Assembly (NCBI GenBank): GCA_032128395.1
Contig: JAQBGV010000096.1
Location: 8,376-72,375, forward strand
Origin: Planctomycetota bacterium
GTDB lineage: Bacteria > Planctomycetota > UBA8108 > UBA1146
Direction of reading: 5' to 3'
DNA: 64,000 nucleotides
The notes under the pieces were generated by a model. That model ran no database searches, was not told where the DNA came from, and saw only the letters and a program-made list of their open reading frames with translations. Positions 8,104 through 25,876 of the stretch are shown piece by piece. The position numbers and the translations under genes were made by a program. Positions within the stretch are counted from its first letter, which is position 1; each line of letters opens with the position of its first letter.

Positions 8104-8697
8104 CTACTCGATGGAATCGAGATCACTCTCGATCCGAGCGATCTCCTCGGGGGCGAGGTCGGTCTGGAGGCGACGCCGTTCGCTGCGTGCTTCCGCCCCG
8201 GCCTTCTGCCAACCGAGTATGACGTACCCTGCGAACAGTCCACCGACGATGAGCGCGGCGACCGGGAGGATGTACAACCACTTGCCGGTGCCCGCCCAAC
8301 CGGGGTTCGATCGCACCTGCGACCCGTACTTCTGCTCCATGAAGGTGAGGATCGCCTCGTCGCTGCTCCCCGCCTGCACCATCTGCAGGATCTCCTGCTT
8401 CTGCGGGTCGGCGCAGCCGTCGAGGCAACTGGCGAGGGTCCGCGTCCAATTCTCATCGGGACACGCACACATCACCTGCTTCGAGATGCGCTTCACCGAC
8501 GTGTGCACCTCAGCGCTGCTCGGGACGAGAAGAGGCTCGGCGCGACCGCGCTCGCCGTGCCCGGTCGAATCGTCTCCTCGAGAAGTCCCCGTCGGCACAC
8601 CGGTCGAGTCCTGGGCCGAGAGGTCCGAGGGGAGGGCCACCGACAGGACGACCGCGAGTCCGGCGAGCATCGCTGTGCGCAAGAGCTCAGTCCGCAA
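8104..8697 (-). CDS. ccmH: cytochrome c-type biogenesis protein CcmH/CycL family (atypical Cys motif)
   Basis: Region EILQMVQAGSSDEAILTFMEQKYGSQVRSNP aligns gap-free with E. coli CcmH VYSMVAEGKSEVEIIGWMTERYGDFVRYNP; C-terminal TM present; redox Cys arranged C-A-C...C-LDG-C rather than LRCxxC. Confidence 0.7.
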   Translation of the reverse strand: MRTELLRTAMLAGLAVVLSVALPSDLSAQDSTGVPTGTSRGDDSTGHGERGRAEPLLVPSSAEVHTSVKRISKQVMCACPDENWTRTLASCLDGCADPQKQEILQMVQAGSSDEAILTFMEQKYGSQVRSNPGWAGTGKWLYILPVAALIVGGLFAGYVILGWQKAGAEARSERRRLQTDLAPEEIARIESDLDSIE

Positions 8698-10762
8698 GAC
8701 CGACTCGTTTCCGTCCGAGGGGGAGCGCGGCGAAGATCCCCCCGAGGATCATCATGATCCAACCCGCCCAGACGAGCATGATCAGTGGATTTCGGAAGAT
8801 GACCAGGTTGTAGCTCCCGTCCTCCCCCGAAGATTGGAAGAAGACGTAGAGGTCCTCCAGCATTCCGCGGTGGATCTCCACCTCGGTGACCATGGTGTTC
8901 TTCTTCGGGTAGTGGCGCTTCTCGGGGAACATTCGGAACGCGCCGCCGAACTCAGGTCGAACCCCGATCTCGAGGGTCTGCAGCCCGAACACCTTGCCGG
9001 ATTCAGCCTGGTCGAGGGTCTGTGCATTCTCCAGGCTGATCTCGTAGCTCCCCACCTGTACCTGGTCCCCCGTACGCATTTTGAATTCCCGCTCCACCCG
9101 GTACATCGACGAGCAGACGATCCCGGTGGTGATCACCGCGAGGCCGACATGCACGAAGTAGCCACCGTACCGCCGGTTGTTGCGCACGGTGATGGTGACG
9201 AGTGTCTCGAGCAATCCCTGGCCAGTGCGTCGACTCCGGTTCTGCACGGTGCGGAGAACCTCGTAGCCGAGGGAGATGGCGATCAGGGTCGCGGAGTAGA
9301 GAACGACGAAGGTCGGGTAGATCCGTTTCGCCCAGCTGAGATCCCCCGTCTCCCCCGCCCGGATCAGTTCGGCACCCCACTGGATCGTCGCCGCGATCGG
9401 GACCGACACGAGGGCCGGGAGCAACAGGTTCCGCAGGAGCACCCGGGGGCTGGTCCGTATCCACCCGAGAGCGGGCCCCACCGCCGAGATCAGGAGCATG
9501 AGCACGAAGAACGGGACCGTCACCTGGTTGTAGGTCGGGGGTCCGACCGAAATCGCCTGGCCGAAGAACTCGTGGGAGATCTTCGGCCAGAGGGTCAGGA
9601 TCAGGATCGAGGAAGCGATCGCGAGCAGAACGAAGTTGTTGATCACGAACAGCGCTTCGCGCGACCAGAGCGTCTCGATCCGGTGCGGCGAGCGCATCGA
9701 GGGCTGCCGTAGCGTGATCAGGAACAGACACACCGCGATGCAGGTCAGCAGGAACCCGAGGAACCAGTCCCCCACCGGTCCGCTGCCGAACGCGTGCACC
9801 GAGTTGACGATGCCACTGCGGGTCAGGTACGTCCCGAAAATGCTCAGGACGAACACCAGCGTCGCGAGGAATGCGTTCCACGAGCGCATCATCCCGCGGC
9901 GTTCCTGCACCATGATCGAGTGCAGGAGGGCGGTCGAGGCGAACCACGGGAGGAAGCTCGCGTTCTCGACCGGGTCCCACGCCCAATAGCCTCCCCACCC
10001 GAGGACGACGTAGGCCCAGAGCCCTCCGAGGATGACGCCGGTCGTGTTGAAGAGCCAACCGAGCATCGTCCAGCGGCGGATCTTGGTGATCCAGTAGTTC
10101 CCCTGCTCGCCGATGATCAACGCCGCGATCGCGAAGCAGAACGGGACGGTGTAGACCACCCAGCCGAAGTAGAGGCACGGCGGGTGGATCAACATCCAAT
10201 AGTTCACGAGGAGCGGGTTGAGGCCGGAGCCGTCCAGGATGGGGGCGCCGTTCGGGAAGTTCTGAGCGAGGAACGCGGCCGAGTGGAGCTCGAATGGGTT
10301 CGTCACGAAGGCGACGACGACCAGGAAGAAGAGTTGGATCGATCCGAAGACGAGATACACCCACGGCTCGAGGCGGCGCCCCTCGCGGTCCCCTTCATCT
10401 CGCCGAAAACCGTACGCGACGATCCCCCCCACGACCCCGATCAGCGCCGCCCAGAAGAGGATCGAGCCGTCGAGTCCTCCCCAGAGCCCCGCGATCTTGT
10501 AGGAGAGAGGGAGTCCGCGCTCGGAGTAGTCGTAGATGTAAGAGCGGTCGTAGGCCCCGTTTACGAAGCCCGCGACCAGGCCGATCGCCGCCCCGACGGT
10601 CGCCCCGCCGGTGGCGACCAGTGAACGTCGCGCGGCGAGAACGAGACGACGATCCTGGATCCAGTCGCCGAGCACGACCAGCAAGATCGTCAGGAGCCCG
10701 AGGCCAGCGCCGAGGATGACGAGGGCGCGGGAGAACTCCAGGTAGCCGAACTCATGGGGCAT
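8687..10762 (-). CDS. ccmF: cytochrome c-type biogenesis heme lyase subunit CcmF
   Basis: 691 aa polytopic membrane protein with WGGYWAWDPVENASFLPW tryptophan-rich (WWD) motif and conserved His; overlaps ccmH start. Confidence 0.9.
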   Translation of the reverse strand: MPHEFGYLEFSRALVILGAGLGLLTILLVVLGDWIQDRRLVLAARRSLVATGGATVGAAIGLVAGFVNGAYDRSYIYDYSERGLPLSYKIAGLWGGLDGSILFWAALIGVVGGIVAYGFRRDEGDREGRRLEPWVYLVFGSIQLFFLVVVAFVTNPFELHSAAFLAQNFPNGAPILDGSGLNPLLVNYWMLIHPPCLYFGWVVYTVPFCFAIAALIIGEQGNYWITKIRRWTMLGWLFNTTGVILGGLWAYVVLGWGGYWAWDPVENASFLPWFASTALLHSIMVQERRGMMRSWNAFLATLVFVLSIFGTYLTRSGIVNSVHAFGSGPVGDWFLGFLLTCIAVCLFLITLRQPSMRSPHRIETLWSREALFVINNFVLLAIASSILILTLWPKISHEFFGQAISVGPPTYNQVTVPFFVLMLLISAVGPALGWIRTSPRVLLRNLLLPALVSVPIAATIQWGAELIRAGETGDLSWAKRIYPTFVVLYSATLIAISLGYEVLRTVQNRSRRTGQGLLETLVTITVRNNRRYGGYFVHVGLAVITTGIVCSSMYRVEREFKMRTGDQVQVGSYEISLENAQTLDQAESGKVFGLQTLEIGVRPEFGGAFRMFPEKRHYPKKNTMVTEVEIHRGMLEDLYVFFQSSGEDGSYNLVIFRNPLIMLVWAGWIMMILGGIFAALPLGRKRVGLAD

Positions 10763-10789
10763 GGGACGTCCTGCGGTTCCGAGGGCCCC

Positions 10790-11242
10790 CTACTCTGGAT
10801 CGGGGGGAGAGACTGTAGGCGGTGGGGCTGCGGATTCGGGCGCGCTGCCGTAGACGTCGGCAGAGCCCATCACTCCGCTCTCCTCGTACTTCGAGGGGCA
10901 CTTCGTGAAGATCTTGGTTCCCTCGAAAAGTTCGGTCTTGCCGACGAAGACTCCGATCACCGCCACATCCGTGTCGACCTTGAAAATGTCGGGGCGGTGG
11001 TCATCCACCGAAGCGATGATACGCACCGAAGGGTCTTCGATGTCGCGGATCGTGAACCGCATCGGACGGACGTCGCTGTCGATCGCGTGGATCACGCCTT
11101 GAAGGCGGACGATCTTGCCCTCGTAGTCACCCATCCGGAGCGACTGGACACCGACTTCGGGGATCGCGCCTTGGAGGATCCCCATCGTCACGAGACCGAC
11201 CAGCCCGATCAGAATGAGCAGGCCGGGAATTGCGATCTTCAA
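10790..11242 (-). CDS. ccmE: heme chaperone CcmE, variant with C-x3-Y heme-binding motif
   Basis: 150 aa, N-terminal TM anchor, OB-fold-like core; FTKCPSKYEE aligns with E. coli LAKHDENYTP (His130 replaced by Cys). Confidence 0.8.
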   Translation of the reverse strand: MKIAIPGLLILIGLVGLVTMGILQGAIPEVGVQSLRMGDYEGKIVRLQGVIHAIDSDVRPMRFTIRDIEDPSVRIIASVDDHRPDIFKVDTDVAVIGVFVGKTELFEGTKIFTKCPSKYEESGVMGSADVYGSAPESAAPPPTVSPPDPE

Positions 11243-11286: not shown

Positions 11287-11340
11287 CCGACTTTCCACTA
11301 TCGGCCCGACTTCCATTATCGGCCCGACTTCCATTATCGG
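11287..11340. repeat. three tandem 18-bp direct repeats, each CCGA-N10-TCGG, in divergent ccmE/HAD promoter region
   Basis: ccgactttccactatcgg / cccgacttccattatcgg / cccgacttccattatcgg (last two identical). Confidence 0.8.
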
Positions 11341-11405
11341 ATCGTCGGCTTCTCGATCACAGTCCGATCGCGCGGATTCGGTCCCCCGTAGGTCGACAGT
11401 ATCCT

Positions 11406-12197
11406 ATGATGCTGACCGATCGGAGGGCAATCCTGCGATTTCCGGGCCTGAGCGCCCTGCTGCGCCCGGAATGCATCCAGACGCTTCGCCTCGCGGATTG
11501 GAGGGACATGGACGAACCGTTCCTCGGCCCGCTCCGGATCGTCGTCTTCGACCTCGACGGCACCCTGATCGACTCCCTTCCCGACATCGCTCACGCCGTG
11601 AACGAGGTGCGTCGTGCCCACGCTGCCAGCCCAACCCCCCTCGAGCAGATCCGCGCCGCGATCGGAGACGGGGCCCGCGTCCTCGCCGGACGGGTCTTCG
11701 GCGATTTGAGAGAGGTGGGCGAAGAGGCGATCCTCGGGGAGTTCCTCGCCGAGTACGAACGATGCAGTGTCGAGAACCTCGAGCCCTGGCGAACGGGCTC
11801 GCAGGAGCTCCTCGATCTCCTGACCGGACACGGTCTCGAACTCGCCATCCTCTCGAACAAGCCGCTAGCTCTGACCGAGCGCATCCTCGAGAACACGGAG
11901 GCGCGCTCCCAATTCGTTCTGGTGCGGGGGCCGGAGAATTCTCCGGCCGCGAAGCCGGACCCGCTCGCACTCCTCGACATCATCGCGTCGCGTGGATTCG
12001 CTCCGACCGAGGCGTGCTTCGTCGGCGATTCGATCGTCGACTTCGCGACGGGTCGTGCCGCGGGGGTCTTCACGATCGGCGTCCGGGGCGGATACCGCGC
12101 GGACGGAGAGCCGGGCCCCGACGTCTGGTGCGACGATCCCGCCGCGGTCTTCGATTGCCTCCGAGTTTCCTCCATCCGAACTGCGGAGGCCGAATGA
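11406..12197 (+). CDS. HAD-family hydrolase (phosphoglycolate phosphatase-like)
   Basis: VVFDLDGTLIDS motif I, SNK motif, C-terminal GDSxxD; ATG start inside longer ORF; stop overlaps nfo start. Confidence 0.8.
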   Translation: MMLTDRRAILRFPGLSALLRPECIQTLRLADWRDMDEPFLGPLRIVVFDLDGTLIDSLPDIAHAVNEVRRAHAASPTPLEQIRAAIGDGARVLAGRVFGDLREVGEEAILGEFLAEYERCSVENLEPWRTGSQELLDLLTGHGLELAILSNKPLALTERILENTEARSQFVLVRGPENSPAAKPDPLALLDIIASRGFAPTEACFVGDSIVDFATGRAAGVFTIGVRGGYRADGEPGPDVWCDDPAAVFDCLRVSSIRTAEAE

Positions 12198-13078
12198 GCG
12201 CGCTCCCGACCACCGCAGAGAGCGAAGCGAAGGAGCTGCGACTCTGCCTCGGGTCCCATCTGTCGGTGGCGGGGGGCCCTTGGAAAGCGGTCGACGAAGC
12301 GATCGAATTGAAGTTGCGCAGCCTCCAGATCTTCACCAAGAATGCGAGTCGATGGAGCCAGCGCCCGATCGCGGAGGGCGAAGCCGAGCGCTTCGGAGCA
12401 AGACGCGCGGCGTGGGGGGATGGCCCGGTCGTCAGCCACACCTCCTACCTGATCAATCTCGGTTCTCCGAAGGAAGAGTTGTTCCAGAAGTCCTCCGCCG
12501 CGCTCGCGGACGAAATGGAACGCGCGGCGATCCTCGGTCTCGACGGAGTCGTCCAGCATCCCGGTGCGCACGTCGGCTCCGGGGTCGAGGCGGCGATCGA
12601 GAGCATCGCCCGCGGCGCGCAGGCCGTGCTCGATCGCGCTCCCGAGGGCCCGCGGCTCCTCCTCGAGAACACGGCGGGAGCGGGATCGACGATCGGCCGC
12701 TCCTTCGAGGAACTCGCCGCTCTCCTCGCGGGGATCGATCGCCCCGACCGCACCGGGATCTGTCTCGACACCTGCCATCTCTTCGCGTCGGGATACGATC
12801 TTCGGACCGAGGAAGGATACGCTGCGACGATCGCCGAACTCGAACGCCACATCGATGTCTCCCGGGTGGCCTGCTGGCACCTCAACGATTCGCGGGGGGA
12901 CCTGGGGAGCAACCTCGACCGGCACGAGCACATCGGCACCGGAGCGATCGGCCTCGAAGGGTTCCGACACCTGCTCGCCGATCCGCGCTTCCACGGGGTC
13001 CCGAAGATCCTCGAGACACCGAAGGATGGTGACGCGGACCAGGTGAACCTCCGTGTCCTCCGCGAGTTGGTTCCGTGA
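12194..13078 (+). CDS. nfo: deoxyribonuclease IV (endonuclease IV)
   Basis: AP-endonuclease family 2 residues (HxxY, LENTAGAG, DTCHLFASGYD, WHLNDS); ~295 aa; real gene is the 3' end of artefactual ORF 10754..13078. Confidence 0.9.
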   Translation: MSALPTTAESEAKELRLCLGSHLSVAGGPWKAVDEAIELKLRSLQIFTKNASRWSQRPIAEGEAERFGARRAAWGDGPVVSHTSYLINLGSPKEELFQKSSAALADEMERAAILGLDGVVQHPGAHVGSGVEAAIESIARGAQAVLDRAPEGPRLLLENTAGAGSTIGRSFEELAALLAGIDRPDRTGICLDTCHLFASGYDLRTEEGYAATIAELERHIDVSRVACWHLNDSRGDLGSNLDRHEHIGTGAIGLEGFRHLLADPRFHGVPKILETPKDGDADQVNLRVLRELVP

Positions 13079-13103
13079 GCGGCGCGGCGGGAGCATCGAA
13101 GCG

Positions 13104-14621
13104 ATGACCAACCGCATCGTGCTCCCGGTCGACCGCGCCCGAGCGGTGGTACTCGTCGAGGCGATCGAACGCACCGATCCCGAGGGGGCGTGGCTCCCTC
13201 TCCCCGATCGTGAGGATGCCACGCGGCGCGCCCGGGCCCTCCTCGGCGACTCGTCGACCGCGGATGAGGTCGCGGCGGCGATCGCATCCCGCGCGGATGA
13301 ACTCATCGCCACACTCGGGCGAGACGAACCCGCGCTGCCACGGATCGCGCGGGGGATCCCGACGGGGCTCCTGGTCGGCGCCGCCCTCCTCATCCCACTG
13401 ATCTACGGACTCGGCCGGAGCATCCTCGGCCCCGGGAACACGATCGACATCTTCCGGAACCCGCTGATCTTGTTGGTACTGTGGAACTCGGCGGTCACGG
13501 TCGTCTCGCTGCTCGTTCTCCTCTTTCGCGCTCGGGGACCGAAGCGTCGGAGGGACCGGACCGATGGCGGCGACCGAGTGCCTCGTCCCCCTCTCCTGTC
13601 GACTCGACTCGGCGAGTGGCTCCTCGCCCTTGGAGTCGGAGCCCGTGCGCTCCGCACCGCAGACCGGACCGGCCATCGGCGGCGCGCTCTCACCGAATTC
13701 TCTCTCCGCTGGCGCTCGGTCGCTGCGATCCCCCTCGCCACCACCGCGCGAATCCTCCTGAACATCGGCGCGCTCTTGCTTCTGTCGACGGCGATCCTCG
13801 AGGCGTACCTGCGGGGACTCTTCACCGAATACTCCGCCTCCTGGCACACGACGTTTCTCGAGCCGGCACAGGCGGAGCGGTTGGCGAAGATCATCTACGG
13901 TCTCCCCGCCGCCCTCCTCGGCCGTGCCGTCGTCTTGCCGGGCGCAGGGGTGGGTGAACCCGCCGCCGGTTGGATCCACTTGATGGCGCTCGCGGCGCTG
14001 ATCTACGCGATCCTGCCGCGTCTCTTCCTGCTCACCGGGACGATCGTCGCTCGCCATAGGGCGCGGCGCGTCACGGTATCGATCTCCCCCGCGCTCGCCC
14101 GACGCTTGCGGGCCCGCGCGATCACCGGGTTTGCGAGCGTCGTGGTCTCACCGTACAGCTGCCGGATCCCCGAGGGGGGCGCCGATCGTCTGCGGGCGCT
14201 ACTCGTCGAGTTGCTCGGAGAACGCGCCGTCATCGAGTTCGCCTCCCCCGTCGAATACGGGGCCGAGGCGCTCGACGAGGGACGGCAGGGGGGGAGCGAC
14301 CCCGAACATCTCTGCCGCGTCGTCCTCTTCGCGCTCGCCCAGCCGCCGGAGACCGAGGTCCACGGCGCTCTCGCTCACGCCCTCGCGCGGGAAGACGCGC
14401 CGGTGATCGCCGTAGTCGATGCTTCGGGGCTCGGGCGCCGATTCGGGTCCGACGATGAGGGTCGCGCGCGACTCGCCGAGCGCCGTCGCACATGGGACCG
14501 GGTCCTCGCGGATGCGGGGATCGAAGCGTGCCACCTCGACCTGGCCCGAGACCTCGATGACCGGAGCTTCGCGGCGCTCGGTCGCGCCCTCGCCGCGACC
14601 CAGGATGGAGTGGTCCGGTGA
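13104..14621 (+). CDS. DUF2868-like integral membrane protein
   Basis: ~505 aa, several TM segments, Arg-rich loops; genomic pairing and ATGA overlap with following GTPase/DUF3482-like gene is the recurrent DUF2868/DUF3482 arrangement (family call from memory). Confidence 0.6.
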   Translation: MTNRIVLPVDRARAVVLVEAIERTDPEGAWLPLPDREDATRRARALLGDSSTADEVAAAIASRADELIATLGRDEPALPRIARGIPTGLLVGAALLIPLIYGLGRSILGPGNTIDIFRNPLILLVLWNSAVTVVSLLVLLFRARGPKRRRDRTDGGDRVPRPPLLSTRLGEWLLALGVGARALRTADRTGHRRRALTEFSLRWRSVAAIPLATTARILLNIGALLLLSTAILEAYLRGLFTEYSASWHTTFLEPAQAERLAKIIYGLPAALLGRAVVLPGAGVGEPAAGWIHLMALAALIYAILPRLFLLTGTIVARHRARRVTVSISPALARRLRARAITGFASVVVSPYSCRIPEGGADRLRALLVELLGERAVIEFASPVEYGAEALDEGRQGGSDPEHLCRVVLFALAQPPETEVHGALAHALAREDAPVIAVVDASGLGRRFGSDDEGRARLAERRRTWDRVLADAGIEACHLDLARDLDDRSFAALGRALAATQDGVVR

Positions 14622-16081
14622 ACGATCCGCGCACGATCACCTGGAGCATCGTCTCGCACACGAACGTCGGGAAGACGACCCTGGCGCGCACTCTGCTCCG
14701 GCGAGAGGTCGGCGAGGTCGCGGACCAGGCCCACGTCACCGACCGGGCCGAGCGGCACACGCTGCTCGAGGCGGGAGACCACCGATTGGTCCTCTGGGAC
14801 ACCCCCGGATTCGGGGACAGCGCACGCCTCATCCGACGGCTCCGCGGGCAGGGGCAGCCACTGGGATGGCTACTCGCCCAGGTGTGGGACCGGATCGCCG
14901 ACCGGCCGCTGTACTGCAGCCAGAAGGCGATCGCGAACATCCGCGACGAGGCCGATCTGGTCCTCTACCTGGTCAGTGCGGCGGAGAGCCCCGAAGAAGC
15001 AGGGTACGTTCCTCACGAGATGGAGCTGCTCGCATGGACCGAGGTCCCGGTGGTGTTGCTCCTCAACCAGACCGGGGAGAGCTCGCTCGATGAGCTCGCG
15101 GAACTCGCGGATCGATGGCGAAAGGCGAGCGAGGCATGGCCGGCGGTGCGCGGGGTGCTCTCACTCGATGCCCACCGGCGCTCGTGGGTCGAGGAAGGGG
15201 TCCTCCTCGAGCAGTCCGCGTCGTGGCTCCCCGCGGAGAAGCGCCCCGTCCTCGAAGCGCTCTCCACCGCCTGGCGAACGCGGGCCCGCGCGCTCATCGA
15301 CGAGAGCGTCTCGGCCCTCGCCGAGTACCTCGCGGACCTGCTCCACCACCGGGAGTCGATCGAGGGAAGTTCCTTCTCTCCCGGGGCGAAGAAGGCGGCG
15401 CGGGAGCGGATCCGGGGGCGGGCCGAGGAACGCAGCCGCGCCCTCCTCGGCCGGTGGATCGCGGTCCACGGTCTGACCGGAGAGCTCGCGGAGCGGATCG
15501 AGGCGGACTGGGAGCATTTCGTCGACTCGGGGGCGGTCTGGCTCGACTCCAAGCGCCTGGGGGTCGGCGGGGCACTCGGGGGGGCGGCGACAGGTGCACT
15601 GGTCGACGCGAAGGCGCTCGGGATGACCCTCGGGGCGGGCACGTTGGTCGGTGGGATCCTGGGTGGGATCGCGGGGTGGGGACTGGGCGGTTGGATCGCG
15701 GATCGATCGGCTCGCGGGCGGCACATCAGGATCGGACCGGCGGCGATCGAGTCTCTCCTCGCGAGGTTGCTCGTCGGGCTGCTGGCGATCTCCCATCACG
15801 GGAGGGGCCGGGGCGAAGTGCGTGCGGAGGAGCTGGCGCGTCGCTGGTCGGATCAGGTCGCAGCGGTGCTGTCGAAATCGCGCAGCACTTTCGAACCGCT
15901 CTGGGAGCGCGGACGTGATGGGACGGCGGGAGCGCGAGAGAAGACGGCATCGCAACTCGAAGCGCCGATCCGTAGCGTGGTGATCGGTCTCTTGTCGTCG
16001 GACTCGGATCGGGTCGAGGAAACGCTGCGTCGGGCGGTGTCTGGCGGCGGCGCCGAGCCCGATTTGGGCGTACGACGATGA
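14618..16081 (+). CDS. GTPase/DUF3482-like membrane-associated GTPase
   Basis: G1 VSHTNVGKTTL, G3 DTPG, NQTG-like G4 (LLLNQTGE), followed by Gly-rich hydrophobic C-terminal domain; overlaps both neighbours by 4 bp. Confidence 0.7.
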   Translation: MNDPRTITWSIVSHTNVGKTTLARTLLRREVGEVADQAHVTDRAERHTLLEAGDHRLVLWDTPGFGDSARLIRRLRGQGQPLGWLLAQVWDRIADRPLYCSQKAIANIRDEADLVLYLVSAAESPEEAGYVPHEMELLAWTEVPVVLLLNQTGESSLDELAELADRWRKASEAWPAVRGVLSLDAHRRSWVEEGVLLEQSASWLPAEKRPVLEALSTAWRTRARALIDESVSALAEYLADLLHHRESIEGSSFSPGAKKAARERIRGRAEERSRALLGRWIAVHGLTGELAERIEADWEHFVDSGAVWLDSKRLGVGGALGGAATGALVDAKALGMTLGAGTLVGGILGGIAGWGLGGWIADRSARGRHIRIGPAAIESLLARLLVGLLAISHHGRGRGEVRAEELARRWSDQVAAVLSKSRSTFEPLWERGRDGTAGAREKTASQLEAPIRSVVIGLLSSDSDRVEETLRRAVSGGGAEPDLGVRR

Positions 16082-19000
16082 CGAGGCACTCCTCGAAAAG
16101 GCGTGGGGCGCGGTTCGATCGCGTTTTCTTCTTGGTCTGCCTCTGCTTCGTGCTTTCGGGCTTCTCGGCGCTCCTCTACCAGACCGCCTGGATGCGGCGC
16201 TTCTCGATCGTGTTCGGAACGTCCGAGCTCGCGATTGCGACGGTTCTCGCAGCGTACATGGGGGGACTGGCCCTAGGCGCGGCGCTCGCGGCGCGGTTCC
16301 TCCACCGCGTTCGCCGCCCGGTGCTGGTCTACGGTCTGCTCGAGGCCGGGATCGCGGTCGGTGCGTTGCTCGTGCCGGCCGGGTTGAACGCAGCTCAAGG
16401 GATCAGTCGCTGGGTACTCGGGGGTCAGCCGGCGGTGCCCTCGGCCGGCGGTTTGATGCAGCCACTCTTCTACTTTTTCTGTTCGCTGATCATCCTGGCG
16501 GTCCCGACCACGTTGATGGGTGCCACCTTTCCGCTCCTCACGCGTCACGCGGTGCGAACTCGCGAACAGATCGGGAGCCGCACCGGACTGCTCTACGCCC
16601 TGAACACCGCGGGCGCGGTGCTCGGCACGGTCGTTTGTGCGTTCGTATTGCTCCCGCGCCTGGGCCTCTTCGCCACCGTGATGGTCGGCGTGGTCACCAA
16701 TCTCATCGTGTGTGCGATAGCCATGGGGGTTGCCCGCCGCCCGCTGCCGAGCGAGTCTCGCGAGAGCACGGCGACGGAAGAAGCCACCGCGGCAGTGGCT
16801 CGCACCTGGCGTCGCGACTCCTTCATCCTGCCGATCATCCTGGTCTCGGGTGCCGTGTCCTTCATCTACGAAGTGCTCTGGACCCGACTGCTCACCCACG
16901 TGGTCGGCGCCAGCCTCTACGCTTTTGCCACCATGCTCGCCACCTTCCTGGTGGGGATCACGGTCGGCAGTGCGATCGCAGCGCGCCTCGCGAGCGAACG
17001 AAAGCGATCGGTGATCGGATTCGTCGTTTGTCAGCTCGGCATCGCGATCAGTTCACTGATCGTCTTTGGCCGACTCGACTCCGTGCCCCGCCTCGCTCAG
17101 CAACTGGGCGCGGGTGACCTGACCGGGGCCGTGGGCAACTTCATGGTCGGAGTCGTGGTACTACTCCCGTCGACGCTCTTCATCGGCGCCACCTTCCCAT
17201 TCGCACTCCGCATCTTCGCGCGCACCGAGGGCGAGGCCGGCTCCGCCTCGGGTCGCGTCTATGCGTGGAACACGTGTGGCGCGATCTTGGGGGCGTGGCT
17301 GGCGGGTTTCGTGATCGTTCCGAACCTGGGCTACGAGGGGACGATGGCGCTGACGGTGACCCTGAACTTCGGTCTCGCGATCGTGACCGCTTGGCTGCTC
17401 TTGGCGGCGACTTGGCGCGTCAGCGCCGGCATGACCATCGCTCTGATCGCCCTGCTGGCGCTGCTCTGGCCGTCCCAGCCGACCGATCTGCTCCGTGTGA
17501 CCTCGATCCCCCCCCGGCGACACGAACCCATCGGGGACATCATCTACTCGGGCGTCGGACGATCGGCGACGGTGTTGATGGTCGAGCACGAAGGCGCGTT
17601 CTATCTGCGCACGAGCGGCCTGCAGGAAGCGGTGATCATGCCGCGCGGGGCGCCCCCCTATCGCTTCCAGCCGAATTGGTGGATGGGCACCCTGCCGGTT
17701 CTAGCGCACCCCCAGGCGAAGTCGATGCTCGTGATCGGCCTGGGGGGAGCGGTGGTGCTCGAGGGGGTGCCCCCGAGCATCGAGACCATCGACGTCGTCG
17801 AGCTCGAGCCCCAGGTGATCGACGCGAACCGCGCCATCGCCGATCGCCGGGCGGTGGATCCGCTCGAGGATCCGCGGGTGACCATCATCGTAAACGATGG
17901 GCGCAACGCACTCGCGCTCACCGACCGCAAGTACGATGTCATCGTGTCTCAGCCTTCGCACCCCTGGACGGCGGGAGCATCGCACCTCTACACCCAGGAG
18001 TTCATGCAGCAGGTGCGCGACCACCTCGCCGACGGCGGCGTGTTCGTTCAGGCCTACGTCGATCTGAGTGTCCTCGAGATCGTCGGTTCGACGCTGCTCT
18101 CGGTTTTTCCGGATGTGCGCCTCTATCGCCCGGGGGCGCTCCTGTACGTGGCTTCGGAGCGAACGCTGGCGGTGGAGCGCGACTTCGCCAGACGTACGAA
18201 TCCGCCGCCGTTTCAATTCGGCTGGCTGGCGCTCCACTCGGTCGAAGACGTGATCGCGAACCTGGCTCTCGACCACGAGGGGATCCGGCTGCTGTGCCAG
18301 GGAGTCGCGGTGAACACGGACGATCACAATCAGCTCGCGACCGAACGGCCCTACGTCGACTTTGCCCTGAACCCGCTGGCGAAGGTGGAACTCGAGCGCC
18401 GATTGATCGAGCTCGATCCGCTCCTGCGCAGGCTCCCGGCGCAGCCCGAGGGCCTGCATTGGGACCACGTGGCCTGGCGGCTCGCGATGATCGGCTTTCC
18501 GGACCGTGCTCTCCAGGTGGCCAGCCGGATCCCAGACTCGAGCGAGCGCCGCCTCGCCGAGGCCAGAGTTCTTCGAGAGCGAGGTCAGCTCGAGGATGCC
18601 GACGGGCAGATCGAACAGGTTCTGGCCGACGACCCGCGTCAGCCGCTCGCTCGTGCCCTTCGAGCCCTCTGGGACACCAGTGACGAGGCCACGATCGCTG
18701 AAAATTCCGAAGGGCTGCCGCCCGGGAGCGCCCTCGCCATCCAGGCGCGGCGAGCGATGCTCCGGAAGGACTGGGCGGCCATCGCCGACCTCGACCGGGA
18801 GCTAGCGGCCGTCGAGCCGAACGACCCGGCGTATCCATCGGCGCTCGAAATGCGCGTTCGCTGGCGAATCGCGCTCTATGGCGGGACCGATCTCGAGGCG
18901 GCCCGGGAGTCGCTGGGACTCGTCGATCAACTCGCGGCGCTGCTCCCCCGCGATGGGGTGTATCGAATCCGCATCGACGTAGGTTTCGCGGCCCAGCGCT

Positions 19001-19236
19001 ATGACGTAGTGGTCGAAACCGTGTCCGAGCTGGCGAACTTGCTGCATCGCTCCGGCGCGAAGCCAGACGACACCGCGCGCAAGGCGACGATCGATCTGGG
19101 CACTCGAGCGCTGGCCGAGGTCGAACGTGTCCTCCGCAACGCGTCCAGCGCGCCCGATACTCTCCCGCGAGCGGCCACGATCGACCTCGAGCGCGTGGAG
19201 GAGACCCGTCGGCGCTTGCTGGGGCCAGGGCAGTAG
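16078..19236 (+). CDS. fused MFS-like / spermidine synthase-family protein with C-terminal helical repeats
   Basis: 1052 aa; N-terminal ~12 TM segments; central aminopropyltransferase/methyltransferase-like core (VIGLGGAVVLE, DVIVSQPSHPWTAGASHLYTQEF); C-terminal TPR-like helical region. Confidence 0.8.
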   Translation: MTRHSSKRRGARFDRVFFLVCLCFVLSGFSALLYQTAWMRRFSIVFGTSELAIATVLAAYMGGLALGAALAARFLHRVRRPVLVYGLLEAGIAVGALLVPAGLNAAQGISRWVLGGQPAVPSAGGLMQPLFYFFCSLIILAVPTTLMGATFPLLTRHAVRTREQIGSRTGLLYALNTAGAVLGTVVCAFVLLPRLGLFATVMVGVVTNLIVCAIAMGVARRPLPSESRESTATEEATAAVARTWRRDSFILPIILVSGAVSFIYEVLWTRLLTHVVGASLYAFATMLATFLVGITVGSAIAARLASERKRSVIGFVVCQLGIAISSLIVFGRLDSVPRLAQQLGAGDLTGAVGNFMVGVVVLLPSTLFIGATFPFALRIFARTEGEAGSASGRVYAWNTCGAILGAWLAGFVIVPNLGYEGTMALTVTLNFGLAIVTAWLLLAATWRVSAGMTIALIALLALLWPSQPTDLLRVTSIPPRRHEPIGDIIYSGVGRSATVLMVEHEGAFYLRTSGLQEAVIMPRGAPPYRFQPNWWMGTLPVLAHPQAKSMLVIGLGGAVVLEGVPPSIETIDVVELEPQVIDANRAIADRRAVDPLEDPRVTIIVNDGRNALALTDRKYDVIVSQPSHPWTAGASHLYTQEFMQQVRDHLADGGVFVQAYVDLSVLEIVGSTLLSVFPDVRLYRPGALLYVASERTLAVERDFARRTNPPPFQFGWLALHSVEDVIANLALDHEGIRLLCQGVAVNTDDHNQLATERPYVDFALNPLAKVELERRLIELDPLLRRLPAQPEGLHWDHVAWRLAMIGFPDRALQVASRIPDSSERRLAEARVLRERGQLEDADGQIEQVLADDPRQPLARALRALWDTSDEATIAENSEGLPPGSALAIQARRAMLRKDWAAIADLDRELAAVEPNDPAYPSALEMRVRWRIALYGGTDLEAARESLGLVDQLAALLPRDGVYRIRIDVGFAAQRYDVVVETVSELANLLHRSGAKPDDTARKATIDLGTRALAEVERVLRNASSAPDTLPRAATIDLERVEETRRRLLGPGQ

Positions 19237-19325: not shown

Positions 19326-20789
<1,464 letters not shown>

Positions 20790-20815
20790 GTTGCACCCTT
20801 TCGGCCACACGCCGC

Positions 20816-23800
20816 TCAGTGATTGAACAAGAACGCCGGGCTGTTGATCAGGGCCCACGCGACATCCTGGACCCATGTCACGCGCCTGTTCTGCAGCTGC
20901 TCGTCGCTCAGACGCATCGCCCGCTCGAGACGCTTCAACTTCGGATCCTCGGGGAGCGGCTTCTCCACTCGGGCTAGCTTGCCGCGGAGTTGCACGAGCT
21001 TCGGATCGACGGGTCGCATCGCCCTCGCTGCCGTGACCCGCTCCCGCTGCTCCTGAAAACCCGGGTCATGGTCTGCAAAATAGGCGAGCAGCTCTCCCTG
21101 TTGCCCTTCGCTTCGCTGGCTTCTCGGCGTCTCCAGAATCGTCGTGACGTGGACGGGCAAGCCGAAATCGACGGGGGTGTTCGATGCCGTCGTGCAAATC
21201 CGGACCCTCCCGATGGTGTGTTCGGAACCGTAGTTGAAGTGCACCGTGAAAGCGAGATTCACGCCTGCCTCGGTGATCGGCTCCTTCAGCTCGAAGGTCG
21301 CGGTGCGGTCGACTCCAAGCTTCGGGGAGGAAGCCCAGCCAGCGTTGTCGACCTTGCCGTCGATCGCTGCCGCTACATCAAAGCCGTCTTGGCTGAAGTC
21401 GGCTCTCGCATTCTGCAAACCTACCTGCGTCGGAGTCGCGACACTGTCGCTCCTTGCAGCAGGAGTCGCCACGATTTCGAACTCGGTCAGCACGAAGTTG
21501 CCATTCCTTGCGCGGCCCGGCCCGCGCTCCGGCAATCGCGAATCCGCGAGCGCCTCGAGCCGGATCGCGGTCACCCCGGTCAGATCGGTCTTGGCCGTGA
21601 ACTGGTACGCGCTCTTGTCATCCTTGCCCGATGCGAAGACGGAGCCATCCTCCTCGATCGTCAGCGTGGCCCCGTTCGATGCGGTCGGGTTCTCCAGGGC
21701 GAGCAGCTTCCAACTCGTCGCCGCCGACCGGGCTTCCTCCCACTCGAGCAACTTCTCCGGCAGGATCTTGCCGTAGGCCTCTTCTTCGGCCACCGCCCGG
21801 GCGATCGCTCGTCGCTGTTGCTCGTCGAGCTCCGCTTCGCGTGGGGCGATCTCCTCCTCGTAGGCTGCGACCTCGATCTTCGCTCCCTCGATGTCAGCGC
21901 TCCGCAGGTCGGCGCGCCGCTCCGCGACCAGCACCGCCTCTTTCTGATAGGCTTCGAATTCCGATCTCAACGCCAAGTGGTCCTGTTCGAGTTCTTCGAG
22001 GATCCTCAGCAGCGAATCCACCTCCTCTTGTGTCGCGGGTCGATTCAGGATTCGCAGATACAAGTCCTCGATGAGCTTCGAATCGTCCGCCTGACTCTCG
22101 ACCAGCTTCGTGATCGCGTTCCCGGAATCACTGATCGCCTGGTCCACCGTCGGGCCGGTGACCAATGCCATCACACTGCCGAGGCCGAGCTCGTTCGATC
22201 GTTCGCACTCACAAGCGCTCTCCCGCGCGGGTCGGCCGAGCGTCGCCAAGAATCCATCCTGGAGTTCGATGCCGACGTCCGGAAGAGCCGAGGCCCGGAT
22301 CCCTTCCGGCACCCCGGGGATCTTCGACTTCGCCCCGAGCGCCAGATGGATCGAGTCGTACAACACTTCCGCCGGCAGCCGCCTGGGTAACGCATGAGCG
22401 TAATTGATTCGGTCGTCCTGGTTCCATTCGTTCGGCACGATCGAGAGCTGGTACGTGCGAGATCTGCAAATGGTCGCGATCAACCGACGCACGTCGAAGT
22501 CACCGCGTACGAAATCCGCCGTCAGCCAATCGAGCAGCTCTGGATTCGAAGGTGGATTTCCCGCGCGGATGTCATCGAGCGGATCGATCAAGCCGATCCC
22601 CAGCAGATAGCCCCAGACTCGATTGACGTAGCTGCGCGCGAAGTGCCGATTGCCAGGAGAGGTCAGCCACGCCGCCAGTTGCTGACGCTTCGATGGATCC
22701 TCCTGGGACTCGATGGCGGGTCCGGATTCGGAAAGGACTGCGTAGGGGAAGGCCGGCGCCGAGACCTCGCCGGTCCGCTCGTTCCGAACTTCGCCGGTCC
22801 GTGGATCGGAGACGATCTCATAGAGTGGCTTGCTCTCCTCGATCGCGCTGCCCCCGACGCGGTTCTTCCCGCTGCGAGGGTCGGCCTCGAGGTGGACGTC
22901 TGCGAAGAAGGCCGCCAGCTCGTAGTACTGGTCTTGGGTCCAGCGCTCGAAGGGATGGTCGTGACACTTATTGCAATTGAAGCGAGTGGCCAAGAAGAGC
23001 TGCGTGGTGTTTTCCATCGCCTCCGAAGGTGTTCGCAAGATCTTGAAATAGGACGCCGCGGGGTTGTCCTTGGTCGAACCGCTGGCCGTCAAGATTTCGT
23101 AGACCATTTGATCGTACGGCGTGTTCTCCTCGACTTGTTGACGGATCCACCGGCGGAAGCTCTCTGCGCCTTCGCTCCCGAGAAACTTGCCGTTGACCTG
23201 CAATAGGTCCGCCCAGCGATTGCCCCAGTGCACGACGAATCCTTCCGAACCGATCAGTGCATCGATCACTTCATCGCGCTTTGCTCTCGGGTCTCGATCA
23301 TCCGCGACGAACGCGATGACTCTCTCTGGGGTCGGCGGGAGCCCGGTCAGATCCAGAGTGACACGTCGCAAGAACTCGGCGTCGGTCGAGAGTTCGGATG
23401 GCAACATCTTCATGCGCTGCCACTTCGCGGCCACGAGTTCGTCGATCTGGTTGTGTATCGGCTGTGCTTGCCAGCTGAAGCCGGATCGGTCCCCCATCAC
23501 CGTGAGAGTGGTCGCGGAATAGGCCCCCTCGAATCGCGCCATCAGGGGGGCTTCGCCCCGCCTCAGGGTCGTGATCAAACCGGACGCGGAACACGTCGCA
23601 ATCTCCGTGTCTCCGCTCGTGACGAACGCCTCCGCGGTGACATCGCGCGACGAGCCGTCGTTGTAGCTCGCCGTCACTCGCAGTTGCTGCTCTCCGCCGA
23701 TCTCCTCTACGACCGGGTTGATCGGGGTCAACTCGATCCGGGTGACGCGCGGCGCCGCGCGATCCAGCGCACAACCTGCGGCGATCCAGTCTCGCAAGAT

Positions 23801-25876
23801 CTGGTAGTAGCCAGAGCCGAATTTCAATCGCATGCCACCCTCGTGCGGAACGCTGCCGGTCGCTTTCAGCAGCATCAAGCTGTCATCGGCGGCGGCAAAG
23901 TTGACGCGGCGTCCCGCGTGGTCGTCCGCGAACGCTCGCACGTCGAAGATCGGGTCGTAGCCGCGCAGGGACAACTTGAAGCCGTTCTTGCCTTGCTTCG
24001 AACCATGACAAGAACCGCCGTTGCACCCCAGTTTCGAAATGACGGGGCCAACGTCGCGGATGAAACTCGGTTCGAAGTCGGCATTTCGACCGGTGACCGT
24101 CACCGGGAGCTCGACGACCTGCCCGCCGTGGGAAATCTCGAGCCGAGCTTCTCCATCGGCGAGTGGCCGCACCATGCCGGCGGTGACCGCGACGATCTCA
24201 GCTGAGAGCTCGTAGGTGGCTCGTCGGGTCAGATCGACCGAATCACCGGAAGCCAACCAACCGGTCACGATCAGTTGTTGGGAGCCGTACTTCTCCACGA
24301 ACTCGATCGACGGGGGATCGACGGTGATCGCCACGAGATCACCCGCCCGGTCGCTCTGCACCGGGGCCGACATCAACACTCGCTTCAAGGATGCGTTCTC
24401 CGCATCCAGGATTCGGACCAGGCCGTCGGCACCTGCGACCGCGAGTTCCCGCTGATTCGGATGCCAGCAGAGCGAATAGATCGGCGTGTTGAAGGAGGCG
24501 GACGCGATGCGCTCGATGTCCCTTCGACGGAACTCCTCCAGCTTCTGTCGCTCCTCGTCACTCCACGAGGTCGACACCTTCTCGAGGATCTCCTTCATCC
24601 CCTTCGGTAGTGTGCCGTCGAAGTCACTGGCGTAGATGTGGACGTGACCACGGCCATCGAGGCTGCTTCCTGCGGCGATCCGCTTTCCGTCGGCGCGGTA
24701 GCCGAGGTCGAAGATGCGCCCGGGCATGGCGGGGAACGAGCGGAGCAGATTCGAGTTGTCGCCGATCACCCGCTTGACTTCGCGATGCACGCGGTAGATC
24801 TGGGGCGTCCCATCGGCGCCCCCGACCAGAACTTCTTCTTGGCTCGGGTGCCGAGCCACCGCAGCGAGTCCGCCCTTGAGCGCGCCCGGCGTGATCGAGG
24901 TGATGTTGTCGATGAACCGTTGGGTCTTCACTTCGGTCAACTTCGCAGCCATATCGCGGCCGACGGAGATCACGTACGAACCGTCCGTCGAGAAAACTGT
25001 ATCCAGCGTCCAGTCGGACGAGGCACCGCTGAAGAGCACCTGCTCGCCACTCTTGGCGTCGATCGCCCGCAGAGTATTGTCACCACAGCCGAAGGCGATC
25101 CGCTGGCCGTCCGGAGACCAGCAGGCTCCGTAGACCGTATCGAAGGTGACCGGCACGGAGAGCTCGAGATTCCAGCTCCTGGTATCCCAGACCTGTACCT
25201 CCCCCATTCGGGCCGGCAACCCACCGGTCACGGCGAGCTTCGTGCCGTCCGGTGAAAAGCGAATCGACTCGATTCGAGCGGAGAGCCCCACCAGTCGGGC
25301 GACCAAGGTCGATCGCTCGACGTCGTGGATCAGAACTTCGTGATAACCGGAGACGGCGAGCAGGAGCCCATCGGCGGAGTAGTCGAGCGCGGTCACGATC
25401 GGCGGAGAGTCGTACTTCGGCGGATGTGCGAGGTCGTACTGCGGCTGAGCGTTGGCCGGCGTATCGTCGATGGCTCCCGCCGCGATCCACCGACGGACAA
25501 GGTCGATCTCGGCTCGCTTCAGCGGACTTCCCTTGTCCGGCATCTCTGCCTCGCCATCGATCGGCGTGATCAGCTCGACGAGCAGACTGGAATCCGGGGC
25601 GCCCGGCACGATCGCGGGTTCACCACCGTCGCCCCCCGCGAGAAGCCGGGCGAACTGCGTCATCACGAAGCGCCCCTTCGACTTCGCAGGTTGATGGCAG
25701 CCGTGACAGTTCGCCTGGAAGATCGGCCGGATGTCTTGGTAGTAGCTGACCAGGGGGGGCTCGGCGGGCTCCGTAGATTCGTCGCTCGCGGTCACCCGGG
25801 CGGCGGACAACAGTACGAGACAGGAGGGAAGCCACAACGATGCAGCGAGCCACTGCCGAGTCATATCTTCGTCCAT
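20816..25876 (-). CDS. giant PSD1-family protein (PSCyt1/PSCyt2 + DUF1549 + DUF1553) with WD40-like and Big-2 domains
   Basis: 1686 aa; N-terminal signal; CHGCH (PSCyt1) and CNGGSCHG (PSCyt2) motifs; WD40-like repeats; Ig-like BIG2 region; C-terminal DUF1553-like region with coiled coil. Confidence 0.8.

Follow-up and report, generated by a model that had tools for sequence, protein, structure and literature searches.

Five co-directional genes at positions 11406-19236 of the 64,000-nucleotide stretch of DNA analysed here (hereafter the window; positions 8,376 to 72,375 of contig JAQBGV010000096.1 from Planctomycetota bacterium assembly GCA_032128395.1) probably make up one transcription unit composed of three independently evolving modules: an HAD phosphatase gene with nfo (module A), a gene pair encoding a DUF2868-like membrane protein and a DUF3482 nucleoside triphosphatase (NTPase; module B), and the gene for a 1052-aa protein of the 'fused MFS/spermidine synthase' family (module C). 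The pair is the only deeply conserved link, and the unit is an ordinary lineage-specific operon, with all five genes drawn from catalogued families. Module C would be a late addition, a stand-alone gene that came to lie behind the pair in this one genome, and co-transcription of the three modules would reflect genome packing in one lineage and no shared pathway. The five genes are all on the + strand and were present both in the open reading frame (ORF) listing and in our reading of the sequence, as originally predicted:

11406-12197, + strand: HAD phosphatase gene, 263 aa
12194-13078, + strand: nfo, encoding endonuclease IV, 294 aa
13104-14621, + strand: gene for the DUF2868-like membrane protein, 505 aa, with an alternative GTG start at 13053
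14618-16081, + strand: NTPase/DUF3482 gene, 487 aa, start codon GTG
16078-19236, + strand: gene for the MFS/spermidine synthase-like protein, 1052 aa

The junctions read in the sequence bear out the gene order and tight coupling that had been proposed. Three ATGA overlaps had been claimed; those at 12194-12197 and 16078-16081 are as described, and the one at 14618-14621 reads GTGA because the start codon of the NTPase gene is GTG. The nfo and DUF2868-like genes are separated by 25 nt (from the stop at 13078 to the ATG at 13104), unless the GTG at 13053 serves as start. Four-nucleotide overlaps are the commonest overlap type in bacterial operons and, though ordinary in themselves, they support co-transcription of the five genes. 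Terminator-like sites in the unit showed no excess over expectation (5 versus 3.0 +/- 1.9), and consensus scans found no sigma-70-like promoter inside it. Domain searches gave matches above cutoff to HAD_2, nfo, DUF3482, Spermine_synth and NF037959, while DUF2868, MFS_1 and TPR_19 stayed under theirs.

Conservation of the neighbourhood was followed in three surveys, covering close relatives (NTPase 64-71% identity), a GTDB sample of one genome per species, and a reverse survey that started from homologues of the 1052-aa protein; homologues of the NTPase number in the thousands. The arrangement of a divergent ccmE followed by HAD, nfo, DUF2868 and NTPase genes with overlapping or near-abutting junctions was found in all four close relatives that have upstream DNA (L001, L003, L169 and L170; NTPase 64-70% identical). 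The 1052-aa gene was downstream of the NTPase gene in none of six close-relative contigs (64-71% identity), where a response regulator, a PAS kinase, a Rieske oxygenase or unrelated opposite-strand genes are found, nor in a relative of 49% identity, which has a DEAD-box helicase at that position. All five genes are adjacent only in further assemblies of the same organism, so that five genes of the operon are conserved within the organism, four in close relatives and two elsewhere. The GTDB scan comprised 80 loci, 60 of them with more than 3 kb of downstream and 68 with more than 1.5 kb of upstream DNA, from Burkholderiales, Rhodocyclaceae, Verrucomicrobiota (including Akkermansia and Prosthecobacter), Planctomycetota, Acidobacteriota, Binatia, Rokubacteriota, Nitrospirota and Sphingomonadales, among others. 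Within 10 kb of the NTPase gene, neither nfo nor an MFS/spermidine synthase gene occurred in any of the 80, and an HAD homologue occurred in two (L055, and a weak 41-bit match in L067). A DUF2868-like ORF, by contrast with these, was recognised upstream of the NTPase gene by a partner hidden Markov model (HMM) in 64 of the 68 loci with sufficient upstream DNA. All-against-all ORF clustering of 85 loci yielded just two conserved clusters, the NTPase (84 loci) and the DUF2868-like protein (74 loci); candidates for a third conserved partner turned out to be either shadow ORFs or neighbours of a generic kind (ABC transporters, acyl ligases). The reverse survey covered 80 metagenome loci encoding homologues of the 1052-aa protein at 39-50% identity; an NTPase, DUF2868, nfo or HAD homologue lay within 10 kb in none of them, and all-against-all analysis of these loci revealed no conserved neighbour of their own. 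The neighbourhood is thus conserved as far as the DUF2868/NTPase pair is concerned; the linkage of the 1052-aa gene is not, and that of HAD and nfo is clade-specific.

The two genes of the pair are tightly coupled in most loci. In 45 of 74 loci the DUF2868 stop and a candidate start of the NTPase gene share 4 nt, in six of the 74 they share 1 nt, and in another 12 the gap does not exceed 30 nt. In a natural fusion, P0128 (831 aa; L168 1423-3918), the N-terminal and transmembrane part of DUF2868 (residues 1-304) is followed by an entire NTPase (343-810), so that the order of the domains is that of the genes. Five members on separate contigs from NCBI and ENA make up the P0128 cluster. P0128 has no DUF2868 C-terminal domain (C-domain), and the real G domain takes its place after the last transmembrane helix, an arrangement that would fit placement of the DUF2868 C-domain and the NTPase G domain on the same side of the membrane. 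The pair is widespread, occurring in Burkholderiales, Verrucomicrobiota including Akkermansia, Planctomycetota, Acidobacteriota, Myxococcota-like lineages, Nitrospirota and Sphingomonadales. Pair homologues were found on none of 72,556 plasmids, and phages gave one weak match, in the unannotated record of Pseudomonas phage Y10 (OQ572411.1 19259-19993; tblastn, 28% identity, E 5e-6, over NTPase residues 1-250), which is probably an unrelated Era-like G domain. With these counts, and with no meaningful PADLOC match, a reading of the pair as a defence system or mobile element was rejected. In agreement with the earlier description of both domains as uncharacterised, the literature searched contained nothing functional on DUF2868 or DUF3482, four papers naming either of them.

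Some loci depart from the usual arrangement of the pair. L018, L028, L034 and L062 have ample upstream DNA and no DUF2868-like ORF even by HMM; three of the four are Verrucomicrobiota, including a genome labelled Akkermansia muciniphila. In L028 and L034 an ORF of 475-591 aa ends just before the NTPase gene; it may be a partner that has diverged strongly or been replaced. In two Burkholderiales loci (L027 7052-9998, Lautropia; L070 6769-9986, Rubrivivax) the DUF2868-like gene and the NTPase match lie about 1.4-1.8 kb apart, and the NTPase ORF of L027 runs to 730 aa, which suggests an N-terminal extension or an inserted gene.

The NTPase scores above the thresholds of both DUF3482 (PF11981; 64.4 bits, cutoff 29.2) and MMR_HSR1 (42.7 bits, cutoff 21.9). 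Conservation of its motifs was assessed in 119 homologues aligned over their full length:

14654-14680, + strand: G1/P-loop SHTNVGKTT, with H14, T15, N16, G18, K19 and T20 invariant
14798-14818, + strand: G3/switch II DTPGFGD, with D61, T62, P63 and G64 invariant
15065-15076, + strand: NQTG, equivalent to G4 and closing strand beta5, with N150 invariant and Q151 and G153 present in at least 90%
15533-15691, + strand: glycine-zipper segment, residues 306-358, with G322, G326, G335, G345 and G349 invariant

An Asn in the P-loop is typical of Era/MnmE/FeoB-type cation-dependent GTPases, and switch II of the NTPase carries a hydrophobic residue (F or L) where Ras-like GTPases carry the catalytic Gln. 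G1 and G3 are present, and the guanine-specifying Asp of the NKxD motif is missing throughout the family, so 'GTPase' is a likely label for this protein and no firmer than that; its loss may be made up for by Asp184, which is invariant at the G5 position. In the AlphaFold2 model (pLDDT 86, pTM 0.86) the NQTG motif lies at the end of a strand formed by residues 145-150. The G domain (1-200) has a three-helix insertion after switch II and is followed by three long helices (206-303), and the C-terminal part consists of a beta-hairpin and then a five-helix bundle that carries an invariant GRGRG loop. Residues 306-358 are a candidate membrane-inserted hairpin; segment 306-344 has a pLDDT below 50, and Asp330 at its turn is almost invariant. 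Foldseek searches of PDB matched the G domain only (Era, EngB, EF-Tu and GIMAP7), with a TM-score of about 0.3 of the query, and PDB profile searches with both proteins of the pair returned G-domain matches or none.

The DUF2868 label originally given to the partner holds by transitive homology only. The protein itself scores 23.1-23.3 bits against PF11067, short of the gathering threshold of 26.8; it matches the syntenic partners found upstream of DUF3482 NTPases (phmmer E 1e-55 to 1e-10), and because 37 of 47 such partners match PF11067 (best E 6.4e-20) the assignment stands. A word-indexed search for homologues gave 8 proteins only, and a repeat with their alignment added none. With so few homologues, the AlphaFold2 model (pLDDT 71) was built from 7 sequences. 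It has an N-terminal helical domain, transmembrane helices in which the polar or aromatic residues W127, N128 and H292 are conserved, and a C-terminal alpha/beta domain (322-505). These parts lie as follows:

13356-14036, + strand: transmembrane region, about four helices predicted from hydropathy
14067-14618, + strand: C-terminal alpha/beta domain, residues 322-505, a candidate degenerate G domain with no P-loop
14346-14363, + strand: conserved PExExH motif in the C-terminal domain

When the C-domain was compared with PDB by Foldseek, the best matches were mostly G domains (Nog1, RhoA, Rac2, EF-Tu and Rad; E 1.7e-3 to 5e-2). Profile-profile alignment with hhalign placed it co-linearly on the G domain of its partner over 153 columns (P 3.1e-4, versus 0.14 for a reversed profile and 0.054 for the best of 30 column shuffles), and the conserved LAxTPExExHG of DUF2868 fell on the conserved LVNAxExPEEAGY of the NTPase. 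We infer, with moderate strength, that the C-domain is a pseudo-GTPase paralogue of the partner's G domain. In another assembly of the same organism (L006 3139-4654; GCA_032124895.1) the DUF2868-like gene has a frame change that puts residues 1-163 and 162-505 in different frames, on account of which the deposited gene call is shortened to 352 aa; the frame change is probably an assembly indel.

From these features a tentative picture of module B can be drawn, as an unrecognised class of bacterial membrane machine in which an Era-derived NTPase and its pseudo-GTPase paralogue, both anchored in the membrane by four transmembrane helices and a glycine-zipper hairpin between them, form a heterodimer for remodelling, tethering or gating of the cytoplasmic membrane, possibly with non-guanine specificity. 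DUF2868 (about 500 aa, about four transmembrane helices) and the NTPase (about 480 aa) would form a membrane complex, with the pairing of the NTPase G domain and the degenerate G-like C-domain of DUF2868 as its core. Nucleotide binding or hydrolysis, probably cation-assisted and of uncertain base specificity since the G4 Asp is missing, would drive a conformational change in the membrane-embedded parts, and this change would either remodel or tether the membrane or gate the transmembrane protein. Because the NTPase has a hairpin and a stalk of its own, membrane remodelling or scaffolding, for which dynamin-like and atlastin-type architectures provide the analogy, ranks slightly ahead of gating, for which FeoB provides it.

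A purely gating function, in which the pair would be a G-protein-gated transporter or channel resembling FeoB split into two genes, with DUF2868 as permease and the NTPase as cytoplasmic switch, is rather unlikely. The Era/FeoB-like G domain with its P-loop Asn and hydrophobic residue after DxxG is what such a switch would have, P0128 does join a transmembrane domain to a G domain, and the conserved W127, N128 and H292 in the membrane would suit a permease; yet the protein has only about four transmembrane helices and no transporter family match in Pfam or PDB, no conserved substrate-related neighbours were found, and the membrane hairpin and long stalk of the NTPase would be superfluous for a simple switch.

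Module A combines an HAD protein of the HAD-IA subfamily with a well-supported endonuclease IV. The HAD protein matches Pfam HAD_2 with 94.7 bits and has the nucleophile loop of the superfamily:

11544-11570, + strand: HAD motif I (DxDGT), reading VFDLDGTLI

Against the NCBIfam phosphoglycolate phosphatase (PGP) models it reached 125.1 bits (cutoff 180) and 127.9 bits (cutoff 225), and so stayed under the equivalog cutoffs of TIGR01449 and NF009695; its score against TIGR01549 (40.9 bits, cutoff 23.3) supports assignment at the level of the HAD-IA subfamily only. Its N-terminal 35 or so residues are not conserved, the alignments of relatives beginning at residues 35-44, and the true start could for that reason lie further downstream than 11406. 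The nfo product scored 262 bits against TIGR00587 (cutoff 129.65) and 156.9 bits against AP_endonuc_2 (PF01261; cutoff 31.1), and fell short of the equivalog sub-models (cutoffs 244-376). Endonuclease IV strips 3'-blocking groups, including 3'-phosphoglycolate, from damaged DNA. The phosphoglycolate taken off DNA is then dephosphorylated by Gph, according to Pellicer et al. (2003) as cited in PMC6278635. By extension from E. coli, module A may be a repair pair in which Nfo would free 2-phosphoglycolate from DNA ends and a Gph-type HAD phosphatase would dispose of it, and the ATGA coupling of a PGP-like HAD gene to nfo is biochemically coherent. Translational coupling of a Gph-like phosphatase to nfo agrees with the way in which 3'-phosphoglycolate is known to be cleared after DNA repair, and merits a wider survey.

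It is unlikely that this pathway extends to the pair, with HAD, nfo, DUF2868 and NTPase genes forming a genuine damage-response operon of the clade and the pair joining a response to oxidative or radical damage to membrane and DNA. Such an operon would account for the same gene order and the overlapping or near-abutting junctions in the four close relatives with upstream DNA. Synteny of the ccm cluster is kept in them as well, however, and the order may simply have been inherited within one family-level clade; among the 80 species loci nfo was never within 10 kb of the pair and an HAD homologue was so twice.

It is very doubtful that the NTPase is a membrane-tethered Era/Der-type GTPase associated with the ribosome or translation and acting in membrane-protein biogenesis. 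Era, Der and EngB are its best sequence and fold matches, but these matches are restricted to the G domain, KH or other RNA-binding domains are lacking, as is the G4 NKxD, and the obligate partner is a membrane protein.

The 1052-aa protein of module C matches NF037959 over its full-length architecture (137.6 bits, cutoff 40) and Spermine_synth PF01564 (59.7 bits, cutoff 22.9). It has about 13 hydrophobic segments, with MFS_1 at 28.9 bits (cutoff 33.4), and its C-terminal region reaches 18.1 bits against TPR_19, short of the cutoff of 25. Its parts and motifs are:

16123-17475, + strand: transmembrane region, about 12-13 helices predicted from hydropathy, internally duplicated
17686-18177, + strand: spermidine synthase (SpdSyn)-fold domain
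17737-17751, + strand: motif I, GLGGA in place of GGGDG by alignment to SpeE 3o4f
17947-17967, + strand: SQPSHPW in place of the SDxxDP catalytic loop, with SDCTDP of 3o4f aligned to SQPSHP
18355-19233, + strand: C-terminal region of about 300 aa, putatively helical, with a weak TPR call

Within the membrane domain (16078-17475), residues 1-210 repeat as residues 230-431 with 31% identity (E 3e-18), in keeping with an MFS-like 6+6 layout to which a 13th helix may be added, and both halves have the motif YQTAWMRRF/YEVLWTRLL at their first helix. With a 13th hydrophobic segment, the SpdSyn-fold domain could come to lie outside the cytoplasm. The family has 7812 cluster representatives at E<=1e-30, of which the best 150, used for counting motif conservation, are full length at about 1000-1100 aa.

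The label 'aminopropyltransferase-like' proved apt for the fold of the domain, which matches PF01564 and aligns with E. coli SpeE 3o4f at E 3.6e-14, and not for its active site. In spermidine synthases, Asp residues anchor the aminopropyl group of decarboxylated S-adenosylmethionine (dcSAM), deprotonate putrescine and anchor the diamine (PMC10146546); the first of these is the acidic residue of GxG(D/E)G (human D104), which binds the aminopropyl amine of dcSAM (PMC10349129, PMC10146546). The dcSAM-binding residues are not retained here, as GLGGA, Q625 and H628 replace all three aspartates in the alignment to SpeE. Motif I reads G-[LF]-G-G-G in the 150 homologues, with D or E at the acidic position in none. 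The second motif, SQPSHPWTAGASHLYT, is almost invariant (Q625 in 150/150, H628 in 149/150 and W in 150/150), Q625 standing for the putrescine-deprotonating Asp and H628 for the putrescine-anchoring Asp (human D173 and D176; E. coli D158 and D161). Residues of the S-adenosylmethionine (AdoMet) scaffold, namely the motif I glycines, E575 and D607, are invariant in the same set. Since all three catalytic aspartates are replaced, the protein is, as judged from its residues, not an aminopropyltransferase, and the family is strongly constrained to keep an active site of another kind. A fungal 7TM protein with the SpdS fold has likewise been shown, by means of the lost acidic residue, to be no spermidine synthase but a protein N-terminal histidine methyltransferase (PMC10349129). 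Most plausibly the 1052-aa protein is a membrane AdoMet-dependent transferase, methyltransferase-like in character, and would work at the membrane. Nothing functional was found in the literature searched on the fused MFS/SpdSyn family.

That the five genes should form one functional system, with the pair, for example, regulating or exporting the product of a membrane polyamine-synthase-like enzyme, has been largely refuted by the neighbourhood surveys and is scarcely to be believed: the ATGA overlap at 16078-16081 does couple the NTPase and 1052-aa genes here, with no terminator-like site beyond chance between them, yet the linkage is missing in all seven relatives (49-71% identity), in 80/80 GTDB loci and in 80/80 reverse-survey loci, and the enzyme has none of the three aminopropyltransferase aspartates. 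The association of the pair with a polyamine-synthase-like enzyme, which headlined the original prediction, fails because the neighbourhood was conserved in neither survey direction (0/7, 0/80 and 0/80, respectively).

Several points weigh against our own account of three modules in one transcription unit. Co-transcription of the five genes is deduced from their spacing. The overlap at 16078-16081 is a real coupling of the NTPase and 1052-aa genes in this genome, and because of it the 1052-aa gene may have undergone lineage-specific functional recruitment. The signals for a pseudo-G domain in DUF2868 are weak (Foldseek E>=1.7e-3, a pLDDT-71 model from 7 sequences, and hhalign probability of 10-40%). 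The C-terminal two thirds of the NTPase had no structural match in PDB by Foldseek, which weakens the preference for remodelling over gating. The HAD protein is below every PGP equivalog cutoff, and its phosphoglycolate phosphatase-like label is putative.

The unit is bounded on both sides by genes on the opposite strand:

10790-11242, - strand: ccmE, divergent, on the HAD side
19326-20876, - strand: DUF1501 gene, convergent, downstream of the 1052-aa gene

ccmE belongs to a cytochrome c maturation cluster that diverges from the unit (8687-11242, minus strand; CcmF-like 8687-10762, CcmE 10790-11242), and synteny of this cluster is kept in close relatives L001, L003, L169 and L170. The ccmE/HAD intergenic region contains three tandem copies of an 18-nt unit (TTCCAYTATCGGCCCGAC) at 11293-11346 (11287-11340 according to Tandem Repeats Finder), each copy of which holds CCGA...TCGG. 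The array could be an operator array or a product of slippage, and it is not found in the matching intergenic regions of the four close relatives. On the other side, a PSCyt1/PSCyt2 beta-propeller protein of 1686 aa (20816-25876, minus strand) adjoins the DUF1501 gene (region 19326-25876), a pairing typical of Planctomycetota- and Verrucomicrobiota-like genomes. Close relatives have a Rieske oxygenase near the NTPase gene where the window has the DUF1501 and PSCyt genes. No Rfam family above gathering score, tRNA or tmRNA was found in the whole 64-kb window.

Of the two-gene modules without an assigned function, the DUF2868/DUF3482 pair is one of the more widespread and more tightly coupled, and the fusion protein, the odd G4 motif and the candidate pseudo-G domain offer concrete hypotheses that could be tested in Pseudomonas, Burkholderia, Akkermansia and Sphingomonas. 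The very large family that NCBI names 'fused MFS/spermidine synthase' is probably misannotated, having an invariant SQPSHPW site and none of the aminopropyltransferase aspartates, and where metagenome annotations deduce a polyamine pathway from the name they are probably mistaken. While the headline polyamine association does not hold, the leads that emerge are the possible G/pseudo-G heterodimer, the missing G4 aspartate and the non-aminopropyltransferase site of this family.

Among known systems, the NTPase most resembles the cation-dependent, hydrophobic-substituted TRAFAC GTPases Era, EngA (Der), EngB, MnmE and FeoB, with which it shares the G-domain fold (Foldseek Era 7c1o, E 2.9e-7; EngB 3pqc), a P-loop of the form xxxNVGK[ST] with its Asn, and DTPG followed by a hydrophobic residue. 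It differs from them in having NQTG for NKxD, Ser for the first P-loop Gly, a three-helix insertion after switch II and an obligate membrane partner, and it has a helical stalk, a glycine-zipper hairpin and the DUF3482 bundle where the Era group has KH or other RNA-binding domains. The likeness to tandem bacterial dynamin-like proteins (BDLP, DynA, LeoA/LeoBC and IniA/IniC) and to fusion GTPases of the atlastin/mitofusin type is one of architecture only: the order of G domain, helical bundle, membrane-inserting hairpin and C-terminal helices is the same, as is the presence of two adjacent genes. A PADLOC match of LeoA to the NTPase was weak (20 bits, in the P-loop region). Unlike dynamins, the NTPase has a small Era-like G domain and no Pfam dynamin (Dynamin_N) or dynamin fold match, and its DUF2868 partner, a polytopic membrane protein in which a candidate degenerate G-like domain is present, is not a second dynamin. 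GIMAP/AIG1 GTPases (GIMAP7 3zjc, Foldseek E 1.1e-4) similarly have a helical extension to the G domain and are anchored in the membrane; they are eukaryotic, the TM-score is 0.27-0.30 of the query, and a sequence-level relation to the NTPase was not detected.

For the other two modules the closest comparisons are enzymes. Module A resembles E. coli Gph and endonuclease IV in that its HAD-IA enzyme has its best matches among PGP models and its Nfo exceeds the family cutoff; in E. coli, however, gph lies in the dam operon and not beside nfo, and the HAD protein of the window is under the equivalog cutoffs. The SpdSyn-fold domain of the 1052-aa protein shares its fold and AdoMet-type scaffold with the SpeE/PF01564 spermidine and spermine synthases, from which it differs in the replacement of the three aspartates and in its fusion to about 13 transmembrane helices and a tail of about 300 aa. 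A parallel, likened by description, is offered by the fungal N-terminal histidine methyltransferase (NHMT; AN4663), fused to a 7TM domain, and the transmembrane-free SpdS-like domain of METTL13, both of which have the SpdS fold without the acidic residue and are protein methyltransferases (PMC10349129). The 1052-aa protein is set apart from NHMT by an MFS-like duplicated 6+6(+1) membrane domain in place of 7TM, and, as compared with NHMT and METTL13, only the bacterial family has the SQPSHPW motif.

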